From: an uncultured Bdellovibrionales bacterium
GTDB taxonomy: Bacteria > Patescibacteriota > Minisyncoccia > Moranbacterales > UBA2206
NCBI GenBank assembly: GCA_964630615.1
Contig: CAZVVG010000003.1
Location: 1-38,180, forward strand
DNA length: 38,180 nucleotides
Reading direction: 5' to 3'
Notes under the pieces: generated by a model
Databases searched by the model: none
What the model was told of the DNA's origin: nothing
What the model saw: only the letters and a program-made list of their open reading frames with translations
Program-made: the position numbers and the translations under genes
Shown here: positions 1,750 to 17,322 of the stretch, one piece after another
How positions within the stretch are numbered: the first letter of the stretch is position 1
Layout: every line of letters begins with the position of its first letter

Positions 1750-1757
1750 ATTTGAGA

Positions 1758-2153: not shown

Positions 2154-2168
2154 ATTTTTGAAGTTAAA

Positions 2169-2621: not shown

Positions 2622-2649
2622 AAGCCAATGATAATACAAAAACAAACAA

Positions 2650-2677
2650 AATAAAAGAGGCGACCCAGTCGCCTCTT
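2650..2677 (-). terminator. Intrinsic terminator after DUF4012-like gene 1
   Basis: Minus-strand hairpin agaggcgac-tgg-gtcgcctct followed by ttttattttg. Confidence 0.7.
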
Positions 2678-2712
2678 TTCTCTCTATTTAAGGATAATTT
2701 TTTTAAATGTAA

Positions 2713-4089
2713 TTATTCCCCGACGATTTTTTCTTGGGCTAACTGGAATTGATAGTCCCGAAGGTTTCCGTCTCGACCGATAATTTTTACCGTAACTGGA
2801 ATTTCTCTCACTCCCGATTGCTTTTGAATTTTGAGTTGATAATTATCGGGGTTGATTTTGCCGGAGACATTGTATTTCATTTCCACGGTTTTAGTCTGAC
2901 CAAGCGGTACTTCCACCAGAGAACCAAAGAATTTTTTCCCCAATTCATTGGCAAAAACCATTTTTCCGGTATTTGTGGAAGTTGTCAGCCAAGATTCTTC
3001 CGGCACATAAGCGCGCAGATAAGTGAGATAATTCTTAGTCATCCAATCCTTTTCTTTAGCTGTATGTGTGTAAGTTATTTTTAAAACTGCTTCCGGCGTG
3101 GATTTGGAAAAATCAACCGTATAGTCAATGGCTCTTTGCATTACTCGGTCGCTTTTTAGAGCGCCCATATTAGCATCAACGATCATCAAATAGTCATTTT
3201 CCCACTCCTGATCCACTAATCCGGCCCAGTTAGCGGCCGTGGCTTGCTTTTGCATTTCCGGATCCTTGAAATAAAGTTGAATGTCTTTGCTGTTCAGATC
3301 CTGCAAAATAACTTCAGCCAGCCTTACTTTTCCGCCCAAGCTTAAAGAAGAGATTTTTTTCATTATTTCCCGGGCTAAAGGACCCATGACGGATTTTCGT
3401 TCTCCGATTTCAAGATCCTGGTGGTAGTATCCTTTTTCTACCTGGTATTCAAGAGCCAAGACTCCGTTTTCACTGTCATAAGAACCTTCAAAACCAGGCA
3501 CTTCGACCGGTCCGGTAACTTTCAAAAATGAAGTCAGCACATTGGAATTGAGGCTAATAATTCCGTCAAAATTTTCCTCTCCTTTTCCCATTTTATAGAA
3601 TAACTCGGCCTTTTTGGCGTTGGTTAGGAAATCTGGAGAAAAGTTGGAATCACGCATTTTCCAGGAAGAAACTCGAAGAGTTTCTTTGATTGGATAGGGT
3701 GGCTCGATTCCATCTGGAATACGTCCGTCAAAGTTTGAAAGATCATGAGTTTCCAGCTTAGTGACTTCGCCATTTTTTACTTTTAAAATACCAAAAGATC
3801 CGATGTAGCCTCCGCCAGGACGCAATTCCATATTATTCTGGAAAAGAACCAGAAAGGTTCTTTCTTTCTCATCTTTCTGTAAAAGATAATTGGCAAACTG
3901 ACCCAAAGCTTCAAATTCTTTTCCGCTAGGCAGTCCCCAGGAAAGGAGGGTGGAAGCGGCGCCCAGCCCCGATTCGTTATCCGCCTTTCTTTGATTGAGG
4001 AACTGGCAAAAGAAATACCAGCCAATCAAAAAAATTAGGGAAAAAATCCAGAAAATTATCCAAAATTTTAGCGATCTTTTCTTAGCCAT
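2713..4089 (-). CDS. DUF4012-like membrane-anchored envelope protein, paralog 1
   Basis: 458 aa with an N-terminal TM helix. The FLVLFQNNMELRPGGGYIGSFGILKVKNGEV block matches the corresponding block of the 802-aa paralog at 22628-25036. Confidence 0.75.
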   Translation of the reverse strand: MAKKRSLKFWIIFWIFSLIFLIGWYFFCQFLNQRKADNESGLGAASTLLSWGLPSGKEFEALGQFANYLLQKDEKERTFLVLFQNNMELRPGGGYIGSFGILKVKNGEVTKLETHDLSNFDGRIPDGIEPPYPIKETLRVSSWKMRDSNFSPDFLTNAKKAELFYKMGKGEENFDGIISLNSNVLTSFLKVTGPVEVPGFEGSYDSENGVLALEYQVEKGYYHQDLEIGERKSVMGPLAREIMKKISSLSLGGKVRLAEVILQDLNSKDIQLYFKDPEMQKQATAANWAGLVDQEWENDYLMIVDANMGALKSDRVMQRAIDYTVDFSKSTPEAVLKITYTHTAKEKDWMTKNYLTYLRAYVPEESWLTTSTNTGKMVFANELGKKFFGSLVEVPLGQTKTVEMKYNVSGKINPDNYQLKIQKQSGVREIPVTVKIIGRDGNLRDYQFQLAQEKIVGE

Positions 4090-4101
4090 AAATTTGGTTG
4101 A

Positions 4102-4281
4102 TTAAAGTTTTCCTTGTAAAAGTTTGTTTAAGCGGGCTTTAACTTCTTCTGGGGTTGCTTCCGGAAAAACCGTTTGGCTCTCTTCTGGAAAGACATCGCC
4201 TTTTTTCAATTCCTCAGTTCTCTGAGGCGTAGGCAAATTTTCTGGCGGAGCCGATTTTCTGGCATAAGTGGCAAAATAATC
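4102..4281 (-). other. 59 open codons in frame with, and directly downstream of, the TAA stop of the Wzz-like gene
   Basis: Hand translation after the TAA at 4282-4284 gives DYFATYARKSAPPENLPTPQRTEELKKGDVFPEESQTVFPEATPEEVKARLNKLLQGKL, then TAA at 4102-4104. That second stop is 12 nt before the next gene start. Confidence 0.45.
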
Positions 4282-5094
4282 TTATTCTTCAGCCGGAGGA
4301 AAAGAAAATTCTTCCCTTTCAGGAAAGGAAGAGAGTTCTCGGCTTTCATTTTTTGGCTCAGTTGGAATACTTTCTCTTTCTCGAGCAGAAAATGTTTGCG
4401 GTTTTTTGACAAGATAAATGGAACCGCTTTCTTCGCTCCGGAAAAAATAGAAAAATCCGAAAGATCCGACGGCCCCGATAATCAAAGCCAATAGGGAGTT
4501 TAGAAAGACATTAGGACGCGCCTGATTTTTGCTGGTTATCGGTCCGTCAATCGTGCTTATAACGACTCTTTCTCCCCCACCGTGATATTTGGCGCTGTTA
4601 GCAGAAAGGTTTTCGGAAATCGCTTGAACAATTTTTTCCGCTTCTTTGCGGGAGGGATCAAAAACGCTGATTTTGATAATCCCGGTATTATTAATTTTTT
4701 TGGTTTTCACGTCTCTTTCCCATTCCTTTTTTCTTTCTTCCCGATCACTGGAAAATTTCCGCTGAATTCCTGCCGGGGATTTGAGAACCTCATCAATGAA
4801 GGAATCCGTATAGATGATTTTGGAAAAAATGTCGCTTAGGTATTCCGCCGACTTAGCAGCCGAATAAGCGTCCACTTTATCTTCCGGTTGTTTCTGAATA
4901 ACCAGAACGCTCATCTGCGATTCATACTTGGGAGTCAGAAACGCTGAAACGGCAAAAACAATCGCCGTCAAGAAAAGCGTGGTGAGAGAAATGGAAGTCC
5001 AATTCTCTTTGAGAGTTTTCATAAAATTGTTCATAACTTTTTTTAGCTTTATTAAAGGTTTCTTTTCGTCCTGAATCGGGATTCCGAGAAACAT
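4282..5094 (-). CDS. Wzz/polysaccharide co-polymerase-like chain-length determinant, paralog 1
   Basis: Short N-terminus, then a TM helix (ISLTTLFLTAIVFAVSAFL), then PKYESQMSVLV, and a C-terminal TM helix (LLALIIGAVGSFGFFYFF). An alternative start at 5034 (MNNFMKTLKENW) is plausible. Confidence 0.7.
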   Translation of the reverse strand: MFLGIPIQDEKKPLIKLKKVMNNFMKTLKENWTSISLTTLFLTAIVFAVSAFLTPKYESQMSVLVIQKQPEDKVDAYSAAKSAEYLSDIFSKIIYTDSFIDEVLKSPAGIQRKFSSDREERKKEWERDVKTKKINNTGIIKISVFDPSRKEAEKIVQAISENLSANSAKYHGGGERVVISTIDGPITSKNQARPNVFLNSLLALIIGAVGSFGFFYFFRSEESGSIYLVKKPQTFSARERESIPTEPKNESRELSSFPEREEFSFPPAEE

Positions 5095-5097
5095 TAT

Positions 5098-5126
5098 AGG
5101 TTAGCACAAAGCCAAAAATTTGTCAA
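5098..5126 (-). promoter_or_regulatory. Candidate sigma70-type promoter for the Wzz-like gene
   Basis: Minus strand reads TTGACA, 17-nt spacer ending in TG, then TAACCT (a weak -10). It lies just downstream of the lipoprotein terminator. If it is used, the ATG at 5094 would not be transcribed, which favours the 5034 start. Confidence 0.35.
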
Positions 5127-5180
5127 GCAAAGACTAAAGCTGGGTTGGATGGTTTTTTAAAATAAAGCCTTTTTTAAGAA

Positions 5181-5217
5181 ACAAAAAGAGCGTAGGAAGC
5201 AGTTTCGTTTCCTACGC
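5181..5217 (-). terminator. Intrinsic terminator after the lipoprotein gene
   Basis: Minus-strand hairpin gcgtaggaa-(10 nt)-ttcctacgc followed by tctttttgt. Confidence 0.75.
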
Positions 5218-5227
5218 CCAAAAATAT

Positions 5228-6127
5228 TTACTGTTCGATTATTTTTAGCTCTTTTAGCTGATAAGTCCCAGCCTGAAAGCCAAAAATAATTACCAGGCTG
5301 GCGGAGCTGTCTGTTTGGGAGGGAATAATCTCTGCGATGAGATTTTCCCCATACAGCTCTACTGCCTTCTCGCCGTAACTTCGGCTACCCTGTTTCAGCT
5401 GAATAATAACTTCAGCCGAAGGTAAGGAGTAGCCGGACACGATAACTTTATACACTCGGCCGGCGGTAATGGAAATCCCATCCCACCGAAGCATGGTACT
5501 CCATCTCTCTTGACCCATCCGGACATTTAATGTTCCGGATGAAGGATCCCAAGTGGAGCCGCTATTTGACCAAAATATTCCCTGACTTATATTAACAGGG
5601 ATTATTCTGGTTTGACTCGTAGTGGTTTTCAGCCGCGATCGCTTTACAGCGATATCACCGGCGAAAACATACTTGCCGGCTTTCTGGCCGAACATAAGTA
5701 AAAATTCGGCCTGATTATCATCCGCTTCAACCGCAAGCTGGATGATATTTTTCCCTTGAAAACCAAACTCTTGGGAGGCATAGGTTATATCCCCGCCTTT
5801 GTTTTTGATTTTCAGGGAAACTCCATCATTTCCCGATCCGGAAACGGTGAATTCTAATCGGTCACCTTTTCGAATTGGGAAATCTTCCCATTTTAAGGCA
5901 GACTGATATGGTTCTCCGTCTCTGGCAACCCAAATTTCAGGATTCTTATACATACCACCATTGTTTGACCAGAATTTTGCTCCGGCCAAATTAAGGTTAA
6001 AGTTTTCAACCACGTATTCGCGGTTGTCAATTTGAGGTTGAACTTCTCCCTCATCATCTCCGCCTCCACCACAGCCAATGAGAATAAGGGTGGCCATAAC
6101 AAAAACAAAAAACCTCTTTACCTTCAT
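5228..6127 (-). CDS. Lipoprotein with two tandem related domains (family not recognised)
   Basis: 299 aa. Signal peptide with lipobox LIGC and a GGGG linker. Perfect AGGAGG at 6141-6136, 8 nt from the ATG. The internal duplication is visible: FWSNNGG..LKWEDFPIRKGDRLEFTVSG versus FWSNSGS..LRWDGISITAGRVYKVIVSG. Confidence 0.85.
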   Translation of the reverse strand: MKVKRFFVFVMATLILIGCGGGGDDEGEVQPQIDNREYVVENFNLNLAGAKFWSNNGGMYKNPEIWVARDGEPYQSALKWEDFPIRKGDRLEFTVSGSGNDGVSLKIKNKGGDITYASQEFGFQGKNIIQLAVEADDNQAEFLLMFGQKAGKYVFAGDIAVKRSRLKTTTSQTRIIPVNISQGIFWSNSGSTWDPSSGTLNVRMGQERWSTMLRWDGISITAGRVYKVIVSGYSLPSAEVIIQLKQGSRSYGEKAVELYGENLIAEIIPSQTDSSASLVIIFGFQAGTYQLKELKIIEQ

Positions 6128-6326
6128 CTTTCTCTCCTCCTTTTTTTATTTTTTATTTTCCTATAATTTATTTTTAATTTCCGGCCAGATTAGACTAAAC
6201 CAGAAATAAAAAAGGTATTAAATTGTCAAAGAAATGACCCTGAAGCCTAGCATAAAATTAAAATAAAGTAAAGCCCCGAAATTCCTGTGCTTAAATTTAA
6301 GGCTTATATTAAGGATATTTTTCCTA

Positions 6327-6355
6327 TTGACAAAAAATTTTATTTAGTGTAAACT
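6327..6355 (+). promoter_or_regulatory. Near-consensus sigma70-type promoter with extended -10
   Basis: TTGACA (6327-6332), 17-nt spacer ending in TG, TAAACT (6350-6355). Confidence 0.65.
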
Positions 6356-6509
6356 ATTTTGTTAAAGCTAGAACCTTGAAAATTCAATTTTCTACCCACC
6401 CTTTTGGAAGTCAAATTTATTTTTGGCTTTTGGAATGGTGGGTGGGACAGGTAAAAAAGTATATAATAATAAAAAAACGAAACAACAAAGAAGGAAGAAG
6501 GAGGAGAAA

Positions 6510-7298
6510 ATGAAGAAAGTGCTGTTTTTTTGTGTCGTTTTTATTTTTTTTACTGCGGGTGCCCTGGCCGCGGATGTCACCGTAAGGGGTGACACCGTTC
6601 GTGGTCCGGTAGTTTCCGCACTTATCAACAGCTATTTCCCGGGAGTGAAGGGAGTGGCTGTTGTTGATAACTCCCTTGGCGAGAATGTTCTCGTCACGGG
6701 AGCGGGAGGTTCGGAGAGGATTCACTTTTCTGGGCCTTTGGTCGCGAAGCTCCAAAAGCTGACGGCCAATCCCCGGGCCGGCGAAGGGCTTATGTCCATT
6801 TGTCCTGGACAGGCCAAGCAGCTCGCGAGAGCTGTTGGTCCGATGCCGGTGGCAGTGGCAAAGGCTCCCATCATCACCTGGGAGGAGAAGTCCTCTCACT
6901 GTGATCGGAGCGGCGGGTGTTACGGCAAGGTCCTGACTGGCAAGTACAGGACCCTCAAGCCGTTCCAGGGGGTAAGATTGGTTTCTAATGTTGGAAACCA
7001 GAATTATCCCAACAATTCGATCTCTTTCAAGATCGAATACCATGAGGCCGGTCTTACAGGATGGCCTTATGGGACTGGCTGGGGTCCGACCATCGTAGTT
7101 CGCAACGCAACGGTAGAAAACCCGTTTGAGTTGCTGAATATGGCGGCCCCCTGCATACTGCCCTATCTTGAGCGCATCAAGGCGCTTAAGAAGGGGCAGC
7201 CTGGAACCGAAGGTGATTCCTGCTGGGAAGTCGTCCTTCTTAGAGACGGAAGTCTCTATAAGGATGAAAGCCCGGCCGAAGCACCTTTCGGCCGCTAA
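6510..7298 (+). CDS. Secreted Cys-containing protein of unknown family (GC-rich)
   Basis: The track ORF starts at a TTG at 6423. I prefer the ATG at 6510, which is preceded by AGGAGG (6499-6504) and followed by the signal peptide MKKVLFFCVVFIFFTAGALA/AD. The protein has six Cys residues after the predicted cleavage site. A sampled line (6781-6840) is 58% GC. Confidence 0.8.
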   Translation: MKKVLFFCVVFIFFTAGALAADVTVRGDTVRGPVVSALINSYFPGVKGVAVVDNSLGENVLVTGAGGSERIHFSGPLVAKLQKLTANPRAGEGLMSICPGQAKQLARAVGPMPVAVAKAPIITWEEKSSHCDRSGGCYGKVLTGKYRTLKPFQGVRLVSNVGNQNYPNNSISFKIEYHEAGLTGWPYGTGWGPTIVVRNATVENPFELLNMAAPCILPYLERIKALKKGQPGTEGDSCWEVVLLRDGSLYKDESPAEAPFGR

Positions 7299-7317
7299 CC
7301 TGTTACCCACCACCCAA

Positions 7318-7353
7318 AGCCCGTCAGTGCATTGCACCAACGGGCTTTTTTAA
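7318..7353 (+). terminator. Intrinsic terminator of the plus-strand secreted-protein gene
   Basis: aaagcccgt...acgggcttt stem with an inner gtgc/gcac extension, followed by ttttt. Confidence 0.8.
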
Positions 7354-7357
7354 TACC

Positions 7358-7380
7358 TAAAAACCGGTTGACGCCGGTCA
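7358..7380 (-). terminator. Possible weak terminator after the 7405-7959 gene
   Basis: Minus strand reads gaccgg-cgtcaa-ccggtt followed by tttagg. The stem is short. Confidence 0.4.
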
Positions 7381-7404
7381 CAAAAGATAATTTTTTTAAC
7401 TTAA

Positions 7405-7959
7405 CTAATATTCAGAGCAGTTCGCTTCGGTGGATTCTTTTATGGATTTAATTTTTTCCTTAAGTTCAGTATATTCAGTTTCGAGATAATTCTCCTGACC
7501 GCGGTAGGAATAATTATAAGAAAATCTTTGTTCCAGCGCCCGGACTAAGCCTAGCCCGTAAAGAGGTAGATTTTCCGTGTTCGCGTAAAGGTGCTTGATT
7601 TTTGAGTCCTCGGGTGAGAAAATTTTCAGGCTCAAATCGGAAAAAGAAGCTAAATAATCTTTTTCAAGGGCAAAGGAGGTTTTTTCTAATTCCCTTATTT
7701 CCAGAAGTGCCTCTTTTTGTTTTTCTTCGGTAATATACCTTTGGGATCCGAAATCGTCTGCCCTTTCTTTCAAAGTGTCGGCGGTTTTTTCCAGAGCCTT
7801 TATTTTTTGGCAAAGCGTTTCATAATGAATCATCGCTTCTTTTTCCAGAGAGAAATAAAATAATTTTTTGTAAAAATAGAAACTGAAAATCAAGGTTCCC
7901 AGGAGAAGCGAACAAAGAAGGTAAAAATAAATTTTCTTCTCTTTAAGAAGATTTTTCAT
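7405..7959 (-). CDS. Membrane-anchored coiled-coil protein (unknown function)
   Basis: 184 aa with an N-terminal TM helix (IYFYLLCSLLLGTLIFSFYFY) and a charged E/K-rich remainder. Its start overlaps the end of the upstream ligase-like gene by 17 nt. Confidence 0.6.
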   Translation of the reverse strand: MKNLLKEKKIYFYLLCSLLLGTLIFSFYFYKKLFYFSLEKEAMIHYETLCQKIKALEKTADTLKERADDFGSQRYITEEKQKEALLEIRELEKTSFALEKDYLASFSDLSLKIFSPEDSKIKHLYANTENLPLYGLGLVRALEQRFSYNYSYRGQENYLETEYTELKEKIKSIKESTEANCSEY

Positions 7960-9298
7960 GGGAATTTTTTAGCGGCTCTTTTTTTGCGAGCGCAAAGGAG
8001 GTACCCAAAAGCGCCCAAAGCGTCCATTGGGTAACCGTTTCCCGAAGCGTATTATTCGTCAAAGAAAAGCTTATTAAAGCCAAAAATAGGGCCAAAACAA
8101 AAAGGTGAAAATCCTTGAGATATTTATTTTTAGCTTTCACATAAGGGGTAAAAGAATTTTTAAGGGCCACCATGATCAAAAGAAAATAAGCCAGGAGCCC
8201 CGGAATTCCGGTTTCCAAAGCGACGCGCAAGAAATCATTGTGGGTGTAGGGATTGCCGGCGTAAGGTCCATATTCCTGTTCGTGAGCAAGGGTTTCCGTC
8301 CCAATCCCCTGCCCGATGGCGGGATTCTTGAGAAAAATCTGATACATCCTTTCCCATTGGGCAAAGCGCCAGCGCACAGAACTGTCCGCCGGCGGATTGT
8401 AGATATCTTCAATCCTCTCCTGAACCAGCGGAAAACTGAAATATAAAACGAGAGCCAGCCCGGCCGCTAGGAGAATCAGCTTGGGAGATTTTTTGAGAAT
8501 TAAGATTAAAATAAAAATCAGGAAAGCAAACCAGGCGCCGCGGGAAAAAGTTTCAACCAGTAAAATTAAACCCCAAAAAATCAAACCGGAAAGAAAGAAT
8601 CTATACATCTGCTCTTTTTCCCAAGTTACAAGAAAAGAAGCAGCGACAAGGACAATGACAATAAAAGAAGCAAAGGGATTGGGATGGCTGAAAGTGCCAA
8701 AAAGTCGGCTTTCAATTCCCGAGGTGCCGCCCAATCCGGTCCCGGTGGCCAATTGATAAGTCGCGAAAAGAAAAGGAACCACGGCGGAAGAAGCAAGTGC
8801 CCAAAGAATCAGAGACGGATTTTTTTCCTTCCGCGCCAGGAGGTAAAAGGAAGCAAAAACCAATAAAATGCTTAGCAGGCGAATTAATTCGTAAAAGCTG
8901 GCCGATTTGTCAATGGAAAAGAAAAGGCTAAGAAGAGAAATTAAAAGAAACATTAACCAAAGAAAAACGGCGGGTAATTTGCTGAAACTTCCAAGATTCT
9001 TGAGAATGAAAAAGGAAAGCAATCCGATTACCAGAATTCCCAACATCGCTCCGGCGTTGAAGGTCAGATTTTCATTCAAACTCAGAGTAATGTTCTCGCT
9101 GAAGCGGTCAATTGAAGGACGCAGAAAAATAATCAAAAAGAGTCCCCACTTGGGATTGGCCAAAAAAACGATGGCCAAAACCAAACCCAAGACCAGCAAA
9201 AAGCTGTTAAGAATGGGCTGATGGGAAACTAGATTAAAGAGAAAGATCACAGTCAATCCCGCCAGCAACAAAAATCCGTTAGTTTTTTTTGACAGCAT
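7943..9298 (-). CDS. O-antigen ligase/polymerase-like (Wzy_C-type) polytopic membrane protein
   Basis: 451 aa with many TM helices. Contains an ETFSRGAWFAFLIF-type motif and a large loop carrying HNDFLRVALETG. Confidence 0.75.
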   Translation of the reverse strand: MLSKKTNGFLLLAGLTVIFLFNLVSHQPILNSFLLVLGLVLAIVFLANPKWGLFLIIFLRPSIDRFSENITLSLNENLTFNAGAMLGILVIGLLSFFILKNLGSFSKLPAVFLWLMFLLISLLSLFFSIDKSASFYELIRLLSILLVFASFYLLARKEKNPSLILWALASSAVVPFLFATYQLATGTGLGGTSGIESRLFGTFSHPNPFASFIVIVLVAASFLVTWEKEQMYRFFLSGLIFWGLILLVETFSRGAWFAFLIFILILILKKSPKLILLAAGLALVLYFSFPLVQERIEDIYNPPADSSVRWRFAQWERMYQIFLKNPAIGQGIGTETLAHEQEYGPYAGNPYTHNDFLRVALETGIPGLLAYFLLIMVALKNSFTPYVKAKNKYLKDFHLFVLALFLALISFSLTNNTLRETVTQWTLWALLGTSFALAKKEPLKNSHEKSS

Positions 9299-9305
9299 CG
9301 GAAAG

Positions 9306-9334
9306 TTGAATTATTCTTTAATTTAGCTTATAAT
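9306..9334 (+). promoter_or_regulatory. sigma70-type promoter placed for a nearly leaderless transcript
   Basis: TTGAAT (9306-9311), 17-nt spacer, TATAAT (9329-9334). Only 9 nt separate the -10 from the ATG at 9344, and there is no SD. Confidence 0.55.
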
Positions 9335-9343
9335 ACAATAAAA

Positions 9344-10603
9344 ATGAGAATTCTTCAAGTCCATAAATACTTTACTCGAAAAAGAGGAGGCGGTTCCGTC
9401 ACGGTCTTTTTTGAAATGATAAAATTGTTGGAAAAGAAGGGTCATATGGTTTCGGTTTTCGCGTTGGCTGATTTGCAAAACGAGGAAACTCCTTTTGCTA
9501 AATATTTCCCCTCCCACTTTGACTTAAACGAAAAAACAGGATTCTTTCGGAAACTGTATCTGGCCGGTAAGCTGATTTATAATCGAGAAGCGGAAGATAA
9601 GCTGAAAAAATTGATTGAGGAATATCCTCCGGAAATTGCCCACCTGCATAATATTTATCATTATCTCACTCCTTCCATTATTCGGCCGCTCAAGAAAAGA
9701 AAAATTCCGGTTGTGATGACGCTTCACGATTACAAATTGATTTGTCCGAATTACAAACTTTTCAATAAAGGCCGGATTTGCGAAAAATGCAAGGGTGGGA
9801 AATATTATCAGTGCTTTTTTAATAAATGCCTGAAAAATTCCCGAAGTGCCAGTTTTTTGGCAATGCTCGAGGCCTATGTTCACAGACTACTCAAAAGTTA
9901 CGAAGGGGTGGATCTTTTTCTCGCGCCTAGCGACTTTATGCGGGAAAAATGTGTGGAATTTGGGATTCCTCCGGAGAAAATAAGAAAGCTGAGGAATGTC
10001 TTTGATGCCCGGAAATTTGAAATTGATGAGGAAAACCCAACGGAAGAAAATTATTTTGTTTTTTTTGGAAGAATTTCTGAGGAAAAAGGTCTGAAAAATC
10101 TTATCCAAGCGGTTGGGGACCTTATTGAATTGGGAAAAATGAAAGAAAACCGCCTATTGATTGTCGGCAAGGGACCGCAAGAAGCCGAGCTCAAAAAATT
10201 AGTAAAAGAAAAAAAATTGGAGGATAAGATTATTTTTGCCGGATTCAAACAGGGAGCGGAACTCAGAGAAATAATCTTAAAAGCTAAATTTGTGGTTGTG
10301 CCTTCTCTTTGGCACGACAACTCACCGTCGGTGATTATTGAAGCGCAATTTTACGCCAAGCCGGTGATTGTTTCCGACCGGGGCGGTTCGAAAGAATCTA
10401 TTCTTCCGGGAGAAACCGGTCTAGTTTTTCAGGCGGAAGAGGTTTCCGATTTGGCGAAAAAAATAAGCCAGCTGCTCGAGCTGACTTATGATGAAAGACT
10501 GGCATTGGGCAGGAAGGGCCGGGAAAACATCCTAAAAATCAATGACGAAGAGAAGCTTTATCAGGAGCTTTTAGGTATTTACCGAGAACTTCTGGCGGGT
10601 TAA
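9344..10603 (+). CDS. GT4-family glycosyltransferase
   Basis: 419 aa. MRILQVHKYF start, a Cys cluster (CPNYKLFNKGRICEKCKGGKYYQC), a C-terminal GT1/GT4 block (FVVPSLWHDNSPSVIIEA) and GETGLVF. Confidence 0.85.
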   Translation: MRILQVHKYFTRKRGGGSVTVFFEMIKLLEKKGHMVSVFALADLQNEETPFAKYFPSHFDLNEKTGFFRKLYLAGKLIYNREAEDKLKKLIEEYPPEIAHLHNIYHYLTPSIIRPLKKRKIPVVMTLHDYKLICPNYKLFNKGRICEKCKGGKYYQCFFNKCLKNSRSASFLAMLEAYVHRLLKSYEGVDLFLAPSDFMREKCVEFGIPPEKIRKLRNVFDARKFEIDEENPTEENYFVFFGRISEEKGLKNLIQAVGDLIELGKMKENRLLIVGKGPQEAELKKLVKEKKLEDKIIFAGFKQGAELREIILKAKFVVVPSLWHDNSPSVIIEAQFYAKPVIVSDRGGSKESILPGETGLVFQAEEVSDLAKKISQLLELTYDERLALGRKGRENILKINDEEKLYQELLGIYRELLAG

Positions 10604-11749
10604 GGGGGATTTTTTCTTTTTTTGGTTTAATATCTGGCGATAAATCGCCAAAGTTTCGGCCACATTGCGATCCCAATTGTAGAAAAATTCCACCCGTTTC
10701 TTGGCCCGTTCTCCCAGAATTTTCAGTTCTTTCTTTTTTTCCAAAGAGAAGATTAGTTTTTCTTTCAAATCTTCAATATTTTTTGATTCAAAAATTATTC
10801 CTGTGTTTCCGACTGGCAGGAGATTTTCTTCAATATTGCTGACAATCGGCGCCAGGCCGTAGCCCATAGCTTCTAGGAGGGCATTGGAAAGGCCTTCCGC
10901 CTCGGAAGGCTGGACGAAAGTATAGGCGCAAGAGTAAAGCCGGGCCAGGGTCAGGCCTTTTTGGTTTCCGGTAAAGACAATGTTGGCGTTATTTTTGGCC
11001 AAGTCCTTGATAAATTCCACGTAATCATCCGTAAAAGCACTGTCGCCGACAATGACCAATTTGAAATCGGCGGGAATTTTTCCGGATTTTTGCAGCTCAT
11101 CAAAAGCCTGAATCAGATAATGAATCCCCTTGTGCTTAACCAGGCGACTGACCACCAAAAAGTAACGGTGGTTTTCCAGTTTCCACTTTTTAATTTCTTC
11201 GTAATTTCCCGGTTTTTTAATCACCGCAGAACCGTTATTAATCACGACTGTTTCCCGACCGTATTTTTCTCGGGCGTATCTTTTCAGGATCTCGCTAACC
11301 GTAATGGTCTTGTCCGGGACATTCACAATGATTTTTTCTCCCAGCTTCAAATAGCGCTTGGCAATTTTCCCCCATTTTTGGTGTTGGCTGTCGAGGGAAT
11401 TGAAGGTCGCGATCAGGGCGATTTTCGGTCGAAAGATTTTTATTAGCCAACATAAGGAAGAAGGTCCTGGCGCCTGATAGTGAACCACGTCGTAATTTTG
11501 AAAAATGGCGTGCACCGTAGCCAGAAAGGTATGAAAAATTGTATCCAGATGCTTGGTCGCGATGGAAGGCAAGTGAATTAGTTTAACCCTTTTGTATTCC
11601 CGAATGTTTTTGGAAGTATAATCGTTTCTGACATAAACAAAAACCTCATGGCCTAATTGAACCATTTTGGTGCTCAATTCTTCCACTCTACGTTCCACGC
11701 CTCCGAATTGAACTGGTATTCCCTTTTGTCCGATAAATGCAATTTTCAT
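10571..11749 (-). CDS. GT4-family glycosyltransferase
   Basis: MKIAFIGQKGIPVQFGGVERRVEEL start and SEAEGLSNALLEAMGYG (EX7E region). The track ORF begins at a TTG at 11854, which is itself the -35 box of the promoter, so I start the gene at the ATG at 11749. Confidence 0.8.
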   Translation of the reverse strand: MKIAFIGQKGIPVQFGGVERRVEELSTKMVQLGHEVFVYVRNDYTSKNIREYKRVKLIHLPSIATKHLDTIFHTFLATVHAIFQNYDVVHYQAPGPSSLCWLIKIFRPKIALIATFNSLDSQHQKWGKIAKRYLKLGEKIIVNVPDKTITVSEILKRYAREKYGRETVVINNGSAVIKKPGNYEEIKKWKLENHRYFLVVSRLVKHKGIHYLIQAFDELQKSGKIPADFKLVIVGDSAFTDDYVEFIKDLAKNNANIVFTGNQKGLTLARLYSCAYTFVQPSEAEGLSNALLEAMGYGLAPIVSNIEENLLPVGNTGIIFESKNIEDLKEKLIFSLEKKKELKILGERAKKRVEFFYNWDRNVAETLAIYRQILNQKKKKSPLTRQKFSVNT

Positions 11750-11825
11750 CTGTTTAGATATCCCTGAAATAAAGGATATTTTTTTAATTTTTTCGTGTCC
11801 CAAACTGATTCTTTCTTGACCTGAA

Positions 11826-11854
11826 ATAATAGCACTTTTCAGAAAAAAAGTCAA
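11826..11854 (-). promoter_or_regulatory. sigma70-type promoter with extended -10
   Basis: Minus strand reads TTGACT, 17-nt spacer ending in TGC, TATTAT. It lies immediately downstream of the terminator at 11857-11894. Confidence 0.6.
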
Positions 11855-11856
11855 GT

Positions 11857-11894
11857 TAAAAAAAGGGCCTCGAACGAATTTCGTTCAAGACCCT
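11857..11894 (-). terminator. Strong intrinsic terminator closing the two-gene cassette
   Basis: Minus-strand 14-bp stem agggtcttgaacga-aat-tcgttcgaggccct followed by ttttttt. The two non-Watson-Crick positions are G-U wobbles on the minus-strand RNA and C-A mismatches on the plus strand. Confidence 0.85.
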
Positions 11895-11904
11895 TTATGA
11901 TGTT

Positions 11905-12714
11905 TTAGGGGTTGACTTTTTCCACTTGTTTCGCCGCATTGTATCTGATTACGGTCGAAACAAGATTAGATGTGTCTAACCCCGCGTTCACGAAGGAAAA
12001 GTTACCTCCGTGTTTTAGGTCGAATTCTGGCCCAACGGACAGGTAGAGTATTTCATACTTATCCGTCAAGCCTACGGCTAAACTCAGGGATGCGTATTGC
12101 CCGGGGGTTCCTATGGACAAATCAGCCTGAAGGTAGGGTTTTATCCACCATCCTTCATGCAGATACTGTCGGCCCCCGATGTCAAAAATCCCGTCAGTCT
12201 TGCTCTTAGAATTCCGGCCGTCAGCCCACAAGGCCTGACCCCAGAGCTCCGTTTTGGGAAAGGAATTCCTTCCCCAATCATCCTCGTGTCTCAGGGCAAG
12301 ATATCCCCCAACCCCGTAAAGATTATACCGGGGTTGAGTCTTGCCATAAGACTCTTTCTGCGTTCCGGCCAGTGCGGACAGCCGATAGTCACCCCAGGAG
12401 TGATAACCTCGAAAGGCTATCTGCCCGAGGTGTCTCTGACCATAGCCGGTGTCGGAGTCCCAATAATTCCCTTTATAACCAACCCCAAGAAGGTTGGCCC
12501 CATTTTCGTTTACCCAAGCAAATGGGTAAACGATAATGTTTCCATGAGCGCTTGTGGAATTTTTAGTATCTTTCCACTTCGCACCCACGAAACTATCCAC
12601 TTTGGATACTCCTGACCACTTGGCCAGTTTGTCCTTGTCACTATTACCTCCATCTGCAAATGCAGAAGAAGCAATAAATAACAAAATAACAATTACATTC
12701 ATCAACTTTTTCAT
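11905..12714 (-). CDS. Secreted Gly/Tyr/Trp-rich all-beta protein, beta-barrel-like (family not recognised)
   Basis: 269 aa. Signal peptide MKKLMNVIVILLFIASSAFA/DG. AGGAGG at 12729-12724, 9 nt from the ATG. About 11 amphipathic 9-13-residue segments are separated by short G/D/N turns. A sampled line (12241-12300) is 53% GC. Confidence 0.8.
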   Translation of the reverse strand: MKKLMNVIVILLFIASSAFADGGNSDKDKLAKWSGVSKVDSFVGAKWKDTKNSTSAHGNIIVYPFAWVNENGANLLGVGYKGNYWDSDTGYGQRHLGQIAFRGYHSWGDYRLSALAGTQKESYGKTQPRYNLYGVGGYLALRHEDDWGRNSFPKTELWGQALWADGRNSKSKTDGIFDIGGRQYLHEGWWIKPYLQADLSIGTPGQYASLSLAVGLTDKYEILYLSVGPEFDLKHGGNFSFVNAGLDTSNLVSTVIRYNAAKQVEKVNP

Positions 12715-12732
12715 TTCTGAAAACCTCCTTTT

Positions 12733-13929
12733 TTATTTTTTAGTTATTTTTGTGAGATAGCTTATCTCCTCCTGGCATTCTGCCAGATAAGGGGCTAATG
12801 CTTGAGCGGCTTGATATCCTGAAACTTTCGCTTCAAGAAAGTTGCCAGTCAAAGTATCATCAGCGGCTGCGATTGACCAGACAATTAACATTCTGATCAA
12901 CTCGCAAGGAGGACAAAGAACCGAACTGATACTGATATTAGGCAATCCCCCTTTTTCCACTACTCTCCTTGCGAAACTCGCGTTATTGCTTGAGCCCACA
13001 AGACTTTTCAGGGTTTCCTCATCCGTTTCGGAAGAAACTCTTTTCCCTTTAACATAATAATCATTGGGAAAAATTTTCTTTAGATCTCGGATAAATGCCT
13101 TGCCGTTCTCAGTTTCGGGAGAAATGTCAATCAACATTTCTTCCGTAATCCGAGAATTATGCTCCGTGAAAAATTCAACCTGTTTTTCAGAGTTAAACTC
13201 AACCATTTTGCCGGAAAGAGTAAGCGCGAACTTACCACTGCCGGAAATAATGGCCAGATTTTTTCCCAACAGGTCAGACTGCTTCTTTCCCTTGGCTATA
13301 ACGAATACATGTGTTCCGTATTTTGTTATAACCGCAGGAAAATCTTCTTCCGTTGTCCGCCAAACTTTACGGACAAAGAACTTCTCTGATTCTTTGCCAT
13401 CTTTCTCGGAAATAGAGTACATTCCGAGTCCATCCCCAATCCAATTAGATCGGAAAATAGGAACAACGATGGCCGTTATCTGCTCTTTGCTCAAGTTCTT
13501 GAGATCTAACGGTAAGGCCACTGACTCAAAAACTTCCTCAACGCCCCTAGTAATTTTGGAGTCAGCTTTTTCCTTAATCGGAGGTAATTCACCGGTTCTG
13601 AAAAGCACCTCCCCCTCATTTTCGAGACGATATAAAACAAAATTATCCGTCTCGTATTTTTCCGCTTGGAAGAAATGGTTTCCATCCCACTTCAACTTCC
13701 CATCTCTTCCTAAAACATCTTTGCGGATTATAGCCGAGACGGCCATCCCCTTCGAAATGTCTATCTTCCCGGAAAAATTATTCTGCTCCACTAAACTATT
13801 TAGTGAAGCAGCGATTGACTCGGGGAACCCGAGCTTCTTAATTTTTTCTAACCTAGAAATTTCCGCAATTGCAGAAGAAACTAGGCAGAAAAAAACCACC
13901 GCCACAATAACTGCAACCTTTCCTTTCAT
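12733..13929 (-). CDS. Secreted protein of unknown family
   Basis: 398 aa. Signal peptide MKGKVAVIVAVVFFCLVSSAIA/E. AGGAGG at 13942-13937, 7 nt from the ATG. A Cys-containing C-terminal segment (CPPCELIR...AECQEE). Its stop is 18 nt upstream of the next gene start. Confidence 0.8.
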   Translation of the reverse strand: MKGKVAVIVAVVFFCLVSSAIAEISRLEKIKKLGFPESIAASLNSLVEQNNFSGKIDISKGMAVSAIIRKDVLGRDGKLKWDGNHFFQAEKYETDNFVLYRLENEGEVLFRTGELPPIKEKADSKITRGVEEVFESVALPLDLKNLSKEQITAIVVPIFRSNWIGDGLGMYSISEKDGKESEKFFVRKVWRTTEEDFPAVITKYGTHVFVIAKGKKQSDLLGKNLAIISGSGKFALTLSGKMVEFNSEKQVEFFTEHNSRITEEMLIDISPETENGKAFIRDLKKIFPNDYYVKGKRVSSETDEETLKSLVGSSNNASFARRVVEKGGLPNISISSVLCPPCELIRMLIVWSIAAADDTLTGNFLEAKVSGYQAAQALAPYLAECQEEISYLTKITKK

Positions 13930-13979
13930 TTTTTGGCCTCCTATTTTTATTTTTTTATATTCACTTTTTAAGTAACTTT

Positions 13980-14037
13980 CCTGAAAATTCAGGAGGAGAA
14001 TCCCTAAGGAAAGAGATTCTCTTCTTAACTTTTCAGG
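13980..14037 (-). promoter_or_regulatory. Long imperfect hairpin in the 5' leader, containing an anti-SD-like CUCCUCC
   Basis: Minus strand reads cctgaaaa gttaagaagagaatc tctttccttagg gattctcctcctgaa ttttcagg. The outer 8 bp are perfect, and the inner arm pairs aagaagagaatc with gattctcctcct. Confidence 0.45.
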
Positions 14038-14065
14038 CTTAAAATAAACAAATTTTTAACTCACA

Positions 14066-14094
14066 ATACTAGCACAACAAAGCAATTTTGTCAA
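14066..14094 (-). promoter_or_regulatory. sigma70-type promoter of the two-gene cassette
   Basis: Minus strand reads TTGACA (14094-14089), 17-nt spacer ending in TGC, TAGTAT (14071-14066). Confidence 0.6.
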
Positions 14095-14124
14095 ATGAAA
14101 AACCCTCTTCTCAAAAAGAGGGTT
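14095..14124 (-). terminator. Intrinsic terminator after the HtrA paralog
   Basis: Minus strand reads aaccctctt-tttgag-aagagggtt followed by tttc. It directly abuts the next -35 box. Confidence 0.65.
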
Positions 14125-14146
14125 AATTACCAAAAAAACGGTAATT

Positions 14147-15280
14147 TTAAAGATTAACCTCGATTTTCATTTCCTGCTCATTCCGAATCAGCGTCAGCTC
14201 AATAGTATCGCCTTTTTTATACTTGTAAAGAAGATCGGGCAAGGTATTTTTTTTGTTGATTTCTTCTCCGTTGAGAGCAATCAGCATATCTCCGATTTTC
14301 AGGCCCGCTTTTTGTGCAGGAGAACCTGCAATGACCGCCAACCCCTGTTGTCCGGAGGCGGAATAGACAAGCGCTCCGTTTTCCCGAGTGATTTTTCCTA
14401 GAGTCAGATAAGTTTTATTGGCCGGAAGGAAATAGATTCCCAAATAAGGATTCTGTTCCAGCCTGTTTTGTAGGACTTTATCCAAAACCCTTTTTATCTT
14501 ATTGGCTGGAATTTGAAAATAAGTTTTTTCCGGTCCGCTCTCTACCACACCGGTAACTCCGATGACCTGCCCAAGATAATCTACGATCGGTCCGCCGACA
14601 TACTCATCTTTGGAAGTAAAAGTGTCCTTAAAGACTCCTTCCATTTTTTCCGAGGAGGAAACCTTTCCTCCGAAAAGATTAAAATCCGAGCTCCAACCTC
14701 CCAAAATAGAGGTAGTGTAATTATTGGAATAATCCAATGAATTATTGCTCAAGGCGACGATTTTTTCCCCAATTTTAGCATCTTCCGAATTGGCAAAAGA
14801 AATCGTGGGCAAGTTGCTGGCTTCTATTTTCAGGAAGGCCAAGTTGCTATAGCTGTCAATGCCGAGGAGCTTGGCTTCTTTGACATTACCGTCAAAAAGA
14901 AACACCTGGTAGGTGGAATTTTCTTTCAGAAGGGCACTTGCGTAGGTCATAATGATGCCATCACTGGTCACAATCATTCCCGTTCCATTTTTTATGAGCG
15001 CCGGTTCTTTTTTGGAAATAGTCTCATTTTTTGAAGCCGAAACAATGTTGACCAGGGAGGAAGAAACCTGGTTGATAACTTTTTCAATGGAAAATTCCTC
15101 TTTGACCGTTACTTGCTCCGTTTTGTTTATGATGGTCACGTCTTGAGCTGCTTTTCTGACAATATCGTATTTGGAAAAAAAAGAAACCGTGCTTAGGTAA
15201 GGAAAAAGAAAGCGATCAGCCAGGATTCCACCGAAACCCCCCAATACGACCACTAAAAAATAAAAACCTATTTTTTTCAT
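14147..15280 (-). CDS. HtrA/DegP-like trypsin-fold plus PDZ protein with all three catalytic residues substituted (predicted inactive)
   Basis: 377 aa with an N-terminal TM helix. It aligns by eye to the active paralog at 16060-17322. TNKHVV becomes TYASAL (His to Ser), NNDIAIIKI becomes YSNLAFLKI (Asp to Asn), and GNSGGP becomes EYVGGP (Ser to Val). The PDZ-like C-terminus is retained (GSPAQKAGLKIGDMLIALNG). Confidence 0.8.
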   Translation of the reverse strand: MKKIGFYFLVVVLGGFGGILADRFLFPYLSTVSFFSKYDIVRKAAQDVTIINKTEQVTVKEEFSIEKVINQVSSSLVNIVSASKNETISKKEPALIKNGTGMIVTSDGIIMTYASALLKENSTYQVFLFDGNVKEAKLLGIDSYSNLAFLKIEASNLPTISFANSEDAKIGEKIVALSNNSLDYSNNYTTSILGGWSSDFNLFGGKVSSSEKMEGVFKDTFTSKDEYVGGPIVDYLGQVIGVTGVVESGPEKTYFQIPANKIKRVLDKVLQNRLEQNPYLGIYFLPANKTYLTLGKITRENGALVYSASGQQGLAVIAGSPAQKAGLKIGDMLIALNGEEINKKNTLPDLLYKYKKGDTIELTLIRNEQEMKIEVNL

Positions 15281-15298
15281 AGCTTTGATTTTTTTAAT

Positions 15299-16036
15299 TC
15301 AAATAAGAGGGATCCATTTGGAGGTTAGGAGAACCAGGGAGGCTAGAAAGAAGAAAAAAACCAGATTAGTAATTACCTTTTTTTTATTTAATTGATGAAG
15401 GAAGTAGCTTCTAATCAGATCCCAAAATATGTAGTAAAGTATGAGTCCAATGACGCCGGTTGTCAAATAGCCGAAAGGCCAAAAATTCATGGTCCAGATC
15501 AATTCTGTCATCAGAAAAGCCAAGATTAGGGTATAAAGCCATACCTGTTTCCGGTCCTGGTTAATCAGGGAAAAATAGGGAAAGCTGACAAAAAGGGTAA
15601 CGAATAAATAATCCAGCATCAGAAAATAAGCGGGAACTAAAAAGTTTAAGTAAAGTCCGTAAAGACTGGAATAGGAAAAAAAAATCGTGGAAACCGAAGC
15701 GGTTACGAGCATTCCTTGCGCGGTTTTATCTTTAGCGTAAAGACCAAGTCGGTTGGTTCCCAAGAGTCCTAAATAATAAACTAAAACCGAGAGGAAAATA
15801 AAAGCCTGTTCTTCTATCCAGAAAGAAATAAGGTAAAGAAGCGCAATAGAAAAAAGGGCGAAAAAGAAAGGAATAATCGCGAAAATCCATTTTTTTCCAA
15901 TTTGTGCTCCAATATAGAAAGAAAATATCAAGATAATGGATAAGATCCAAAAGACTTTTTCGGGAAAAAAAACCAAGGCCTCCAGACCGAGAAAAAAAAC
16001 CAAAGCGAAAATTAGGGGTCGGATCTTAATAAACAT
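15299..16036 (-). CDS. Polytopic membrane protein (unknown function)
   Basis: 245 aa and almost entirely hydrophobic, with about 7-8 TM segments. Lies between the two HtrA paralogs. Confidence 0.6.
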   Translation of the reverse strand: MFIKIRPLIFALVFFLGLEALVFFPEKVFWILSIILIFSFYIGAQIGKKWIFAIIPFFFALFSIALLYLISFWIEEQAFIFLSVLVYYLGLLGTNRLGLYAKDKTAQGMLVTASVSTIFFSYSSLYGLYLNFLVPAYFLMLDYLFVTLFVSFPYFSLINQDRKQVWLYTLILAFLMTELIWTMNFWPFGYLTTGVIGLILYYIFWDLIRSYFLHQLNKKKVITNLVFFFFLASLVLLTSKWIPLI

Positions 16037-16059
16037 TGAGACTCAAATAAATAAATAAC

Positions 16060-17322
16060 TTATTTTCTTTCCTCCAGCTTAACTTTAACGTTTTTTTCAT
16101 TTCCTTTGTGCCAGATTTTAAGCACGACTTCTTCACCCACATTATGCTGAGAAATCAAGTCACCCAGACTGTTATTTTCGTCAATTTTTGTTTCATTGAG
16201 TTCCAGGATTATGTCATTTTCAACCAGACCGGCCAAATCGGCTGGTGAGCCAGGAATAACAGCGAGATCGGTAATTTTTTCTCCTCGAGAAACCAAGGCG
16301 CCATAGGCAAAAGGAAGACTGTTGGCTTTCTGGAAACCTTTATCAATGAGAACGTAACGAATGCCCAGATAAGGAGTGGAAATTTTCCCCGTGGATTTTA
16401 CCTGATCCACGACTCGCTTAATATTGTTAGACGGAATAGCGAAGCCGATATTTTGAGCACCTTGAGCCATGGCGACATTTATGCCAATAACATTTCCAGT
16501 TATATCCAAAAGCGGGCCTCCAGAATTTCCCGGATTAATGGCGGCGTCTGTCTGGATTATGTCGTTCAATTTTTCCTGTTCCCCCATCAATGAGCCTGAG
16601 GCAGTAATATTTCTCTTAAGTCCGGAAACAATTCCCCTACTGACCGTGTTGGAAAATTCTCCCAGGGAGTTTCCAATCGCAATCACGGATTGTCCAATTT
16701 TTAAGGATTCCGAATCCCCCAACTCTAGGATAGGGAAATTTTCCCCAGATATTTTTATAATCGCAATATCATTATTCGGGTCTCGAGCCAAAACGGAAGC
16801 TTCATATTCTTGGTTATCATTTGTCAATACCGTATAGCTGGCGGCCTCGTCCGCAACCACGTGTTTATTGGTGACAATCATTCCATTGGCGGTTATCAGA
16901 AAACCTGTTCCTCCACCGATTTTTTCTTTTTGGTTTTCACCCTCTTTCGGCTGCGTTTCTTCCCAGGGAGAGAAAAAATTAGGAAAATTAAAACCAAAAG
17001 GGGAAGAAAAAAAGTCTTGCATTTTAGGGATATCTTTGGAAACCACAATGCTCACCACTGCCGGCGCGCTTTTTTCTACGACCTCGGTAACGGCGGAATC
17101 TTCTTCAATAACTTTTTGTTTAATGATGCTGGTTTCGGGAGATCTTTTTTCTAAAGAAAAGAAGGGATATTTTTTTGAAAACTGAATTTCCGACTTTTGG
17201 TAAAATCCGGCAGCCAGAAAACCGAAAACAGCTCCAAAAAACACAGAAATAATTAAACTGAGAGCTAGCACGAATAAAATCAGGAACTTGAAATTCTTTA
17301 TTTCCTCTTTTTCCATATGCAT
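16060..17322 (-). CDS. HtrA/DegP-family serine protease with PDZ domain (catalytic triad intact)
   Basis: 420 aa with an N-terminal TM helix. GTGFLITANGMIVTNKHVV (His), NDIAIIKI (Asp), NPGNSGGPLLD (Ser) and PDZ (GSPADLAGLVENDIILELN). Confidence 0.9.
   Translation of the reverse strand: MHMEKEEIKNFKFLILFVLALSLIISVFFGAVFGFLAAGFYQKSEIQFSKKYPFFSLEKRSPETSIIKQKVIEEDSAVTEVVEKSAPAVVSIVVSKDIPKMQDFFSSPFGFNFPNFFSPWEETQPKEGENQKEKIGGGTGFLITANGMIVTNKHVVADEAASYTVLTNDNQEYEASVLARDPNNDIAIIKISGENFPILELGDSESLKIGQSVIAIGNSLGEFSNTVSRGIVSGLKRNITASGSLMGEQEKLNDIIQTDAAINPGNSGGPLLDITGNVIGINVAMAQGAQNIGFAIPSNNIKRVVDQVKSTGKISTPYLGIRYVLIDKGFQKANSLPFAYGALVSRGEKITDLAVIPGSPADLAGLVENDIILELNETKIDENNSLGDLISQHNVGEEVVLKIWHKGNEKNVKVKLEERK

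Follow-up and report, generated by a model that had tools for sequence, protein, structure and literature searches.

A conserved set of exported envelope-protein genes in Moranbacteria probably keeps Shine-Dalgarno-led initiation amid genes that start without it

The stretch of DNA considered here, called the window throughout, comprises 38,180 nucleotides (38 kb) of contig CAZVVG010000003.1 (assembly GCA_964630615.1), with a GC content of 40% and nearly all of its genes on the minus strand. Its gene content includes rfbB, HIT, DUF4012, Wzz, Wzy_C, several GT4 glycosyltransferases, two HtrA proteases, lepA, MurJ, RNase P RNA, valS and pheST. In a species-level genome collection, the closest relatives of its lepA come from metagenome-assembled genomes of Candidatus Moranbacteria (62-71% identity), followed by other Parcubacteria, and hence the organism is assigned to the Moranbacteria group of the candidate phyla radiation (CPR). 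Four genes of the window, A to D, form the subject of this study since each of them is preceded by a perfect Shine-Dalgarno (SD) sequence. Gene A (5228-6127, minus strand) encodes a 299-residue predicted lipoprotein with the lipobox LIGC; gene B (6510-7298, plus strand) a 262-residue secreted two-domain protein with conserved cysteine residues; gene C (11905-12714, minus strand) a 269-residue secreted protein with a predicted 12-strand beta-barrel and a C-terminal helix; and gene D (12733-13929, minus strand) a 398-residue secreted protein that is always paired upstream of C. All four N-termini begin with a stretch rich in lysine and arginine that leads into a hydrophobic core and then into an AxA site or a lipobox, as judged by eye and by a crude heuristic rather than by SignalP. 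None of the four proteins has a significant match in Pfam, NCBIfam or PHROGs.

A first-pass annotation of the window had reported an exact AGGAGG 5-9 nt before the start codons at 6127, 6510, 12714 and 13929, and the motif is indeed found at each of them. The strength of pairing was expressed as the duplex energy (dG, in kcal/mol) to ACCUCCUUA, the 9-nt anti-SD. The SD of A (6136-6141, minus strand) lies 8 nt before the ATG with an A-rich tract ahead of it (dG -11.6), that of B (6499-6504, plus strand) lies 5 nt before the ATG with an unstructured A-rich linker (-11.7), that of C (12724-12729, minus strand) lies 9 nt before the ATG within the 18-nt spacer between D and C (-12.3), and that of D (13937-13942, minus strand) lies 7 nt before the ATG (-10.2). 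The hexamer occurs 23 times on the two strands of the window, but only five of these occurrences are intergenic, and four of the five are the SDs of A to D. From its background frequency, about 0.05 copies would be expected by chance in the 5-9 nt slot of 30 genes, against the four observed. The 23 other genes of the window with secure starts have a mean dG of -0.8 and a best value of -4.9, the window background being -2.7, which agrees with the earlier statement that the core genes carry no SD. The SD-like matches in core open reading frames are internal only and lie 21-229 codons beyond N-termini conserved among relatives. When the same metric was applied to 56 annotated genes of E. coli, the mean was -6.55 and 91% of the genes lay at or below -4.4; hence, the contrast is not an artefact of the energy metric.

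The observation is stronger than could be known from the window alone, as the SD is conserved in relatives. After the correction of miscalled starts, the SD-led class comprises 22 genes in 7 loci, all of which have an SD (mean dG -11.4, median -11.8, weakest -7.8). By comparison, 96 other genes from the same loci have a mean of -1.26, and only 10% of them reach -4.4 or below (Mann-Whitney p = 2e-13). Among these 96 are the genes for the ribosomal proteins L21, S2 and L31, the elongation factor EF-Ts and the release factor RF1, none of which has an SD. The SD-like pairing upstream of the bulk genes, in the window as well as in the pooled loci, is even weaker than the background. The SD of the orthologues has been kept at 4-9 nt from the ATG while the surrounding leader sequence diverged, and homologues of B with 66% and 40% identity, found in a metagenome scan, still give energies of -13.3, -11.8 and -11.2.

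The base directly before the start codon also separates the two groups. U stands at position -1 in 70 of the 96 other genes (73%) versus 4 of the 22 class genes. Further upstream, the bulk genes are depleted in G from -12 to -1 (5-12%) and enriched in A from -11 to -3. The class therefore differs from the bulk genes in two independent features of the start context, namely the SD and the base at -1. A Kozak-like context shared by the start regions of bulk genes was noted in the window and in L083, L085, L088, L090, L091 and L092 (locus numbers denote the relatives compared).

The position of the four genes is as conserved as their SDs. Among the relatives compared, L083 is a 109-kb ENA contig with a lepA 79% identical to that of the window. 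The window, L083, L085, L091 and L092 share the gene order lepA, DivIC, rotamase, HtrA2, DUF5656, HtrA1, [D][C], GT4b, GT4a, Wzy, g8, [B][A], Wzz, DUF4012, with protein identities of 45-64% for the orthologues of A to D. For example, the A orthologue of L083 is 52% identical and occupies the same site; in L085, the A orthologue is missing and B is present. In these four loci and in L086, D-C lies between HtrA1 and GT4b, and B, with or without A, lies between g8/Wzy and Wzz. The positions are kept in at least five other lineages at protein identities of 40-80%, with only partial conservation in L088 and L090. More remote B homologues of 33-56% identity (L088, L090 and a Joint Genome Institute (JGI) contig, all from distant Parcubacteria) likewise adjoin a Wzy_C gene and two GT4 genes. 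No site with the flanking genes directly adjacent was found among L083, L085, L091, L092 and L086; the synteny check proposed in the first-pass annotation thus finds the cassettes in place in all five. The cassettes, meaning A, B and the D-C pair with their flanking signals, are therefore old and positionally conserved parts of a surface-glycan locus. The relatives L003-L009, anchored on lepA, were also tried for an empty site and were set aside as too distant (lepA 62-71% identical, synteny broken after HtrA1). Two of these more distant Moranbacteria carry a clpB-like AAA+ chaperone gene between HtrA2 and DUF5656 (L003, 15492-18098; L004, 15483-18098), and this gene is absent from that place in the clade of the window.

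The protein families are tiny, with 13, 20 and 12 members among 5.8 billion proteins. Most of the matches are unnamed metagenome proteins, and every contig inspected behind these turned out to be the same locus; the named sources are exclusively Parcubacteria or Moranbacteria. Automatic gene calls had misplaced the starts of B in L083, L090 and L092, of C in L092, and of a fusion of C with LysM in L091. The corrected starts, which open with MKK and a hydrophobic core, carry the SD. Within the close clade, a strong SD at the first ATG is accompanied by a signal peptide or lipobox in nearly every such gene. The sole exception flagged there is the GT4a start of L083 (dG -9.0), the ATG of which lies four codons upstream of a conserved MKIL start; this SD-led start is judged to be spurious. 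In L088, a locus within a 656-kb Parcubacteria contig, two more SD-led genes for exported proteins, a 309-residue lipoprotein and a 472-residue LysM protein, were observed beside Wzz and B (6396-8745, plus strand). The exported proteins that come under the SD-led regime at this locus thus seem to vary from one lineage to another. The L088 LysM protein was considered as a homologue of the C domain and was rejected by a hidden Markov model search.

The cassettes are also set apart as transcription units. The TTGACA promoters with a 17-nt spacer that had been described for B and the two-gene operon were recovered at 6327-6355 (plus strand, TTGACA-17-TAAACT) and at 14094-14066 (minus strand, TTGACA-17-TAGTAT with a TG element), and that of B is nearly identical in L083. 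Gene A has a -35-like TTGACA hexamer at 6224-6229 (minus strand) in a 19-nt block conserved with L083; its promoter role is putative, and the -10 element is weak. The intrinsic terminators reported around the cassettes stand as well. That after A (5176-5219, minus strand) is a hairpin, GCGTAGGAA...TTCCTACGC, followed by a T-run and read from the sequence, as is the hairpin with T-run after B (7317-7351, plus strand). C is followed by a 16-bp stem with a T-run (11896-11862, minus strand), while the terminator of the upstream HtrA gene (14124-14101, minus strand) isolates the D-C unit.

The leaders of these units are about 65-150 nt long, that of D-C being structured over about 130 nt. The leader of B contains a hairpin of about 25 bp in its 5' untranslated region (6390-6447, plus strand; dG -32.8, z -3.6). 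B-type leader hairpins are found likewise in L083, L085, L088, L091 and L092 (two copies). In seven B-type leaders, drawn from six loci, pairing is maintained in 91% of cells and 10 of the 25 pairs are compensatory; none of 500 shuffles matches this, and slid registers collapse. Rfam holds no family for the leaders or the B hairpin and returned only chance matches to miRNA-like hairpins. The hairpin could serve as an mRNA stabiliser or as a protein- or ligand-binding element. The promoter of B and the initial 45 nt of its leader hardly differ between the window and L083, despite a protein identity of only 64%. In the B and C leaders, both the minimum free energy (MFE) and the centroid folds leave the SD unpaired, within an A-rich stretch that follows stable hairpins. 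In the D leader, four nucleotides overlapping the SD are paired in the MFE fold and the SD is open in the centroid, whereas the A leader has no significant structure. A switch that would sequester the SD of D through a CUCCUCC in its leader (13991-13996, plus strand) was considered and rejected, as the predicted folds show no pairing between this motif and the SD, and the leaders of orthologues do not contain it. The leaders of A, C and D (6136-6153, 12724-12741 and 13937-13954) share an 18-nt AAAAATAAAAAAAGGAGG tract of 89-94% identity (repeat family D2), of the form AAAAA(T)AAAAA(A/T)AGGAGG, whose A-rich part is not conserved in the orthologues of other lineages. It may reflect homogenisation within the genome or convergent selection for an unstructured enhancer.

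With regard to composition, the first-pass annotation had ascribed an elevated GC content to all four genes. Its six counts over 60-nt lines are exact; at the level of whole genes, compared with 24 core genes, the excess is clear in B (54% GC, z +5.6) and C (48%, z +3.1), marginal in A (z +2.0), and lacking in D (z +1.0), which has ordinary GC and ordinary GC at third codon positions (GC3) for its neighbourhood. B and C also show larger tetranucleotide distances. In every genome examined, B and C again show the excess, joined in some relatives by D. For example, B has 48.6% GC and a GC3 of 0.51 in L090, a locus of 35% GC with a GC3 of about 0.25 in the neighbours, and reaches 52-53% in loci of 35-38% (L097, L098). 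Part of the excess is driven by amino acids, with 10% glycine versus 5.6% and fewer lysine, isoleucine, leucine and phenylalanine residues, and part is synonymous, with AAG, GAG, CAG and GGG favoured. The persistence of the offset across deep divergence argues for a property of the genes rather than the trace of an unameliorated import. A codon bias of highly expressed genes is not supported as the source of the raised GC3 because the ribosomal-protein genes of L090 have low GC3. Likewise, the proposal that an SD helps GC-rich genes to cope with structured mRNA does not serve as a general cause, as D combines normal GC with a strong SD.

The coding parts of these genes vary even between strains. 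L086 represents a near-identical strain whose flanks are 99-100% identical to the window at the nucleotide level. Over the stretch 11905-13929 of the window (7015-9050 of L086), exactly from the ATG of D to the stop codon of C, the identity falls to 60-85%, and a mosaic of 78-100% follows across GT4b, GT4a and Wzy. Synonymous divergence (dS) amounts to 0.65 in D, 1.95 in C and 0.36-0.48 in the GT and Wzy genes versus 0.02-0.04 in the HtrA genes, with a ratio of nonsynonymous to synonymous divergence (dN/dS) of 0.1-0.2 across the exchanged genes. Similarly, between the window (5228-6127) and L002 (1374-2282), dS is 0.50 in gene A and 0.13 in Wzz, while B is identical. Recombination within the clade has thus exchanged the coding parts of D, C and A for divergent alleles, under purifying selection, as at O-antigen or capsule loci. 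Neither positive selection in situ nor foreign import was accepted as the source of this strain divergence. The break falls at the start codon of D, and the promoter, leader and SD of D lie inside a backbone of 99.5% identity; hence, the expression signals are part of the resident locus and do not travel with the exchanged allele.

What the proteins do can be approached through their folds and neighbours. An AlphaFold2 model of C built from 13 sequences (predicted local distance difference test score, pLDDT, 76.7; predicted template modelling score, 0.70) consists of 12 long antiparallel strands and a C-terminal helix. All top Foldseek matches in the PDB are outer-membrane barrels, including the beta-domains of autotransporters, intimin and invasin, KdgM/NanC and PcoB, at template modelling scores of only 0.35-0.5. 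In profile searches, LysM proteins of 400-680 residues were found to end in the same domain, and one cluster of them is named Candidatus Moranbacteria by NCBI, and the position of C in L091 is filled by such a LysM fusion; C would therefore be a cell-wall-associated domain typical of the clade. C ends in an amphipathic helix and ...QVEKVNP without a terminal aromatic strand, and no BamA gene is present within the window of about 38 kb. CPR bacteria are generally regarded as having no outer membrane. An assignment of C as an outer-membrane protein was rejected because there is neither a terminal aromatic signal nor evidence of an outer membrane. The barrel fold is predicted for a CPR bacterium presumed to have no outer membrane. 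B is modelled confidently (pLDDT 82), with no match to its fold in the PDB or among viral structures (BFVD). Its family, down to members of 33-40% identity, constantly adjoins one gene with a Wzy_C domain and a pair of GT4 genes (L088, L090, L091, L092, L094). Both O-antigen ligases and protein O-oligosaccharyltransferases belong to the Wzy_C family, and from the constant adjacency B may be a partner of the Wzy_C-type enzyme within the glycan machinery, or its substrate. In L085 and a JGI contig, a radical-SAM/SPASM gene is inserted beside B. For A, family and PDB sequence searches gave only weak, non-significant hints of carbohydrate-binding modules or lectins; the PDB sequence search with D gave no significant match. 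No SLH or known S-layer domains were detected in A to D.

Other features of the window concern the cassettes less directly. RNase P RNA of bacterial class A (145 bits) lies at 30605-30977 (minus strand) between a sugar transferase gene and valS, and no tRNA genes are found in the window. GC3 is lower (0.30-0.38) from 18586 to 30566, from DivIC and lepA to the second GT cluster, than at 745-17322 and 31101-37196 (0.39-0.49), a regional step that is unrelated to the four cassettes.

Taken together, we consider it probable that a conserved, lineage-specific class of genes for Sec-exported envelope proteins keeps SD-led initiation amid bulk genes that are translated independently of the SD. The bulk genes would start in an A/U-rich, G-poor context with U at -1, while A, B and the D-C operon would keep a strong canonical SD inside the surface-glycan locus of Wzz, Wzy_C, GT4 and DUF4012. 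Each unit appears to bring its own TTGACA promoter, long leader and intrinsic terminator, to which B adds its conserved stem-loop, and this architecture would most likely serve to give these few mRNAs a separate and strong route to the ribosome. Since it matches the expression units of abundant envelope proteins, of which E. coli ompA is a similar example, the translation of A to D is probably high or separately set. Of the dedicated high-expression class of surface proteins that the first-pass annotation had offered as one explanation, the conserved class with its distinct initiation style stands, and high expression is suggested by the architecture. A to D may be S-layer-like or cell-wall proteins, or else serve the adjacent Wzy_C-type enzyme as substrates. 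A conserved and correctly spaced GGAGG before four to six gene families also implies that the clade keeps a working anti-SD, and its 16S rRNA is thus predicted to carry CCUCC. Neither the window nor the 13 relative loci of Moranbacteria and Parcubacteria that were scanned contain rRNA genes, and no bS21, bS18 or bS6 genes are present among the loci examined.

Several points weigh against this interpretation. The genes for ribosomal proteins and EF-Ts, which are surely highly expressed, have no SD, so high expression alone cannot explain which genes receive one. The raised GC3 of B and C departs from the codon bias usual in highly expressed genes. Not every SD-led gene is exported: in L091, a very basic open reading frame for 63 residues directly after lepA (2528-2719, plus strand) has AAGGAGG (dG -11.4) and no signal peptide, and an SD also precedes YjbQ-like genes in L006 and L007, two Moranbacteria of higher GC, whose products likewise have no signal peptide. 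Moreover, the survey covers about 120 genes (about 120 kb) from one type of neighbourhood, in which the orthologues are non-independent and represent about six families, and around half of Parcubacteria are reported to have no CCTCCT motif in the 16S rRNA (PMC9297842). At the position of the L091 reading frame, other relatives were seen to encode a membrane peptide of 36-37 residues without an SD.

Four alternatives were weighed. The first-pass annotation had offered, as its other explanation, a recent horizontal import from an SD-using donor of higher GC, the genes being not yet adapted to the host. B and C as compositional outliers in GC, tetranucleotides and AAG-, GAG- and CAG-rich codons, the self-contained units with promoter and terminator, and the resemblance of the predicted C fold to outer-membrane barrels of Gram-negative bacteria would all suit such an origin. 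However, the same annotation had held that cassettes conserved in position and composition across distant relatives would contradict it, and this is what the loci show: the positions, the SD and the raised GC are shared with the other lineages, including genomes of 35% GC in which B has 48-53%. D and A are compositionally ordinary. The neighbours of the cassettes are HtrA, GT4, Wzy and Wzz; phage and plasmid searches with C and B and a PHROGs comparison gave no match, no att-like repeats, integrases or other mobility genes were found in the window, and no homologues were found outside Moranbacteria and Parcubacteria bins. A recent import is therefore highly improbable. An artefact of wrong start codons or of chance purine runs in A-rich intergenic DNA is scarcely credible at all. 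Automatic calls did misplace several starts in relatives, yet the true starts carry the SD once corrected, the conserved core N-termini have no SD-preceded alternative start nearby, and both the chance expectation and the rank test, with the E. coli control behaving as expected, speak against it.

A more serious alternative holds that the cassettes are portable accessory units, an old pool of surface-antigen alleles shuffled by recombination, in which SD, promoter, terminators and GC persist for the sake of portability and to which GC-biased gene conversion might add some of the GC. The fall in identity across D and C between flanks that hardly differ, the mosaic GT4 and Wzy genes, the raised dS of D, C, GT and Wzy relative to HtrA, the divergence of gene A from that of L002 and the elevated GC3 of B and C all fit such shuffling. 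Nevertheless, the break at the start codon of D leaves the promoter, leader and SD in the backbone, B, whose GC is the highest, does not differ between the window and L002, and the SD is conserved down to homologues of 40% identity in very different genomic backgrounds. Recombination would explain the diversity but not the restriction of the SD to exported proteins, and we regard this account as unlikely. Doubtful to a greater degree is a regulatory SD regulon read by a sub-population of ribosomes, such as those without bS21, with the anti-SD normally occluded or idle as in Bacteroidia, so that the synthesis of envelope proteins would be coupled to ribosome status or host attachment. It is favoured by the discrete conserved set of strong-SD genes, by pairing in the bulk genes below background, as in Flavobacteriales, whose genes carry fewer SDs than chance would give (PMC9976891), and by the frequent absence of bS21 in Parcubacteria (PMC9297842). 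The energies of -10 to -13 kcal/mol are, however, those of ordinary strong SDs and not of the extended pairing typical of rpsU in Bacteroidia (below -13, with a mode near -20), and the SD-led genes encode exported and not ribosomal proteins.

A bolder extension can also be formulated, which we consider unlikely: two initiation regimes would operate side by side, an SD-independent one for bulk genes, those of ribosomal proteins among them, in an A/U-rich context with U at -1, and a conserved SD regulon of exported, strain-variable envelope proteins read through the anti-SD, one of which is the predicted beta-barrel with a domain that relatives fuse to LysM. In that case, the SD would be a class-specific address label for surface and host-contact proteins, the output of surface proteins could be set or switched independently of bulk translation, possibly through ribosome heterogeneity, and a simple SD scan would reveal, straight from CPR genomes, the S-layer and host-interaction proteins that have long been sought. 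CPR bacteria have not been brought into culture, and little is known of the proteins on their surface or at contacts with the host; should the SD-led genes of SD-poor CPR lineages reliably encode the exported envelope proteins, the SD would offer a cheap genomic marker for them. There is also a caution for annotation, as automatic callers misplaced several starts of precisely these genes.

Known systems share parts of this arrangement. The recombination hot spots of O-antigen, capsule and S-layer-glycan synthesis resemble the present Wzz/Wzy_C/GT4 locus in mosaic divergence, a dS raised about 10- to 90-fold and purifying selection; they differ in that the most divergent genes here are the exported pair D and C and not the glycosyltransferases. 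S-layer genes are known for efficient promoters, long stabilising 5' untranslated regions and biased codon usage, and the Lactobacillus units of the slpA type are similar in being monocistronic or short operons with a consensus-like promoter, a long stem-loop leader, an accessible strong SD, a signal peptide, a strong terminator, distinct codon usage and strain-variable alleles (PMC3666127). Unlike these, A to D have no detectable homology to known S-layer proteins and no SLH or other known anchoring domain, and while nearly all genes of Firmicutes and E. coli have an SD, the SD is exceptional here.

Loss of the anti-SD has been described in Parcubacteria (Tsurumaki et al., 2022; PMC9297842), and the near-absence of the SD from bulk genes, including those of ribosomal proteins, fits this report; however, no SD-retaining gene class is described there, whereas GGAGG is conserved here before four to six families. 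The closest parallel lies in Bacteroidia such as Flavobacterium johnsoniae, where nearly all genes have no SD and an A-rich upstream region, SD-like sequences are rarer than chance, and a very small conserved set of genes (rpsU/rpsR) keeps a strong SD, the extended one of rpsU being translated by ribosomes without bS21 (PMC9976891; PMC7797042, PMC13000453). The Moranbacteria of the CPR depart from this model in having ordinary SD cores of 5-7 nt and -10 to -13 kcal/mol instead of the extended rpsU pairing, U at -1 instead of A at -3, -6, -12 and -13, and SD-led genes for Sec-exported envelope proteins instead of ribosomal ones. The pattern would then extend beyond Bacteroidia, with lineages that abandon the SD keeping it for a few genes as a specialised signal.

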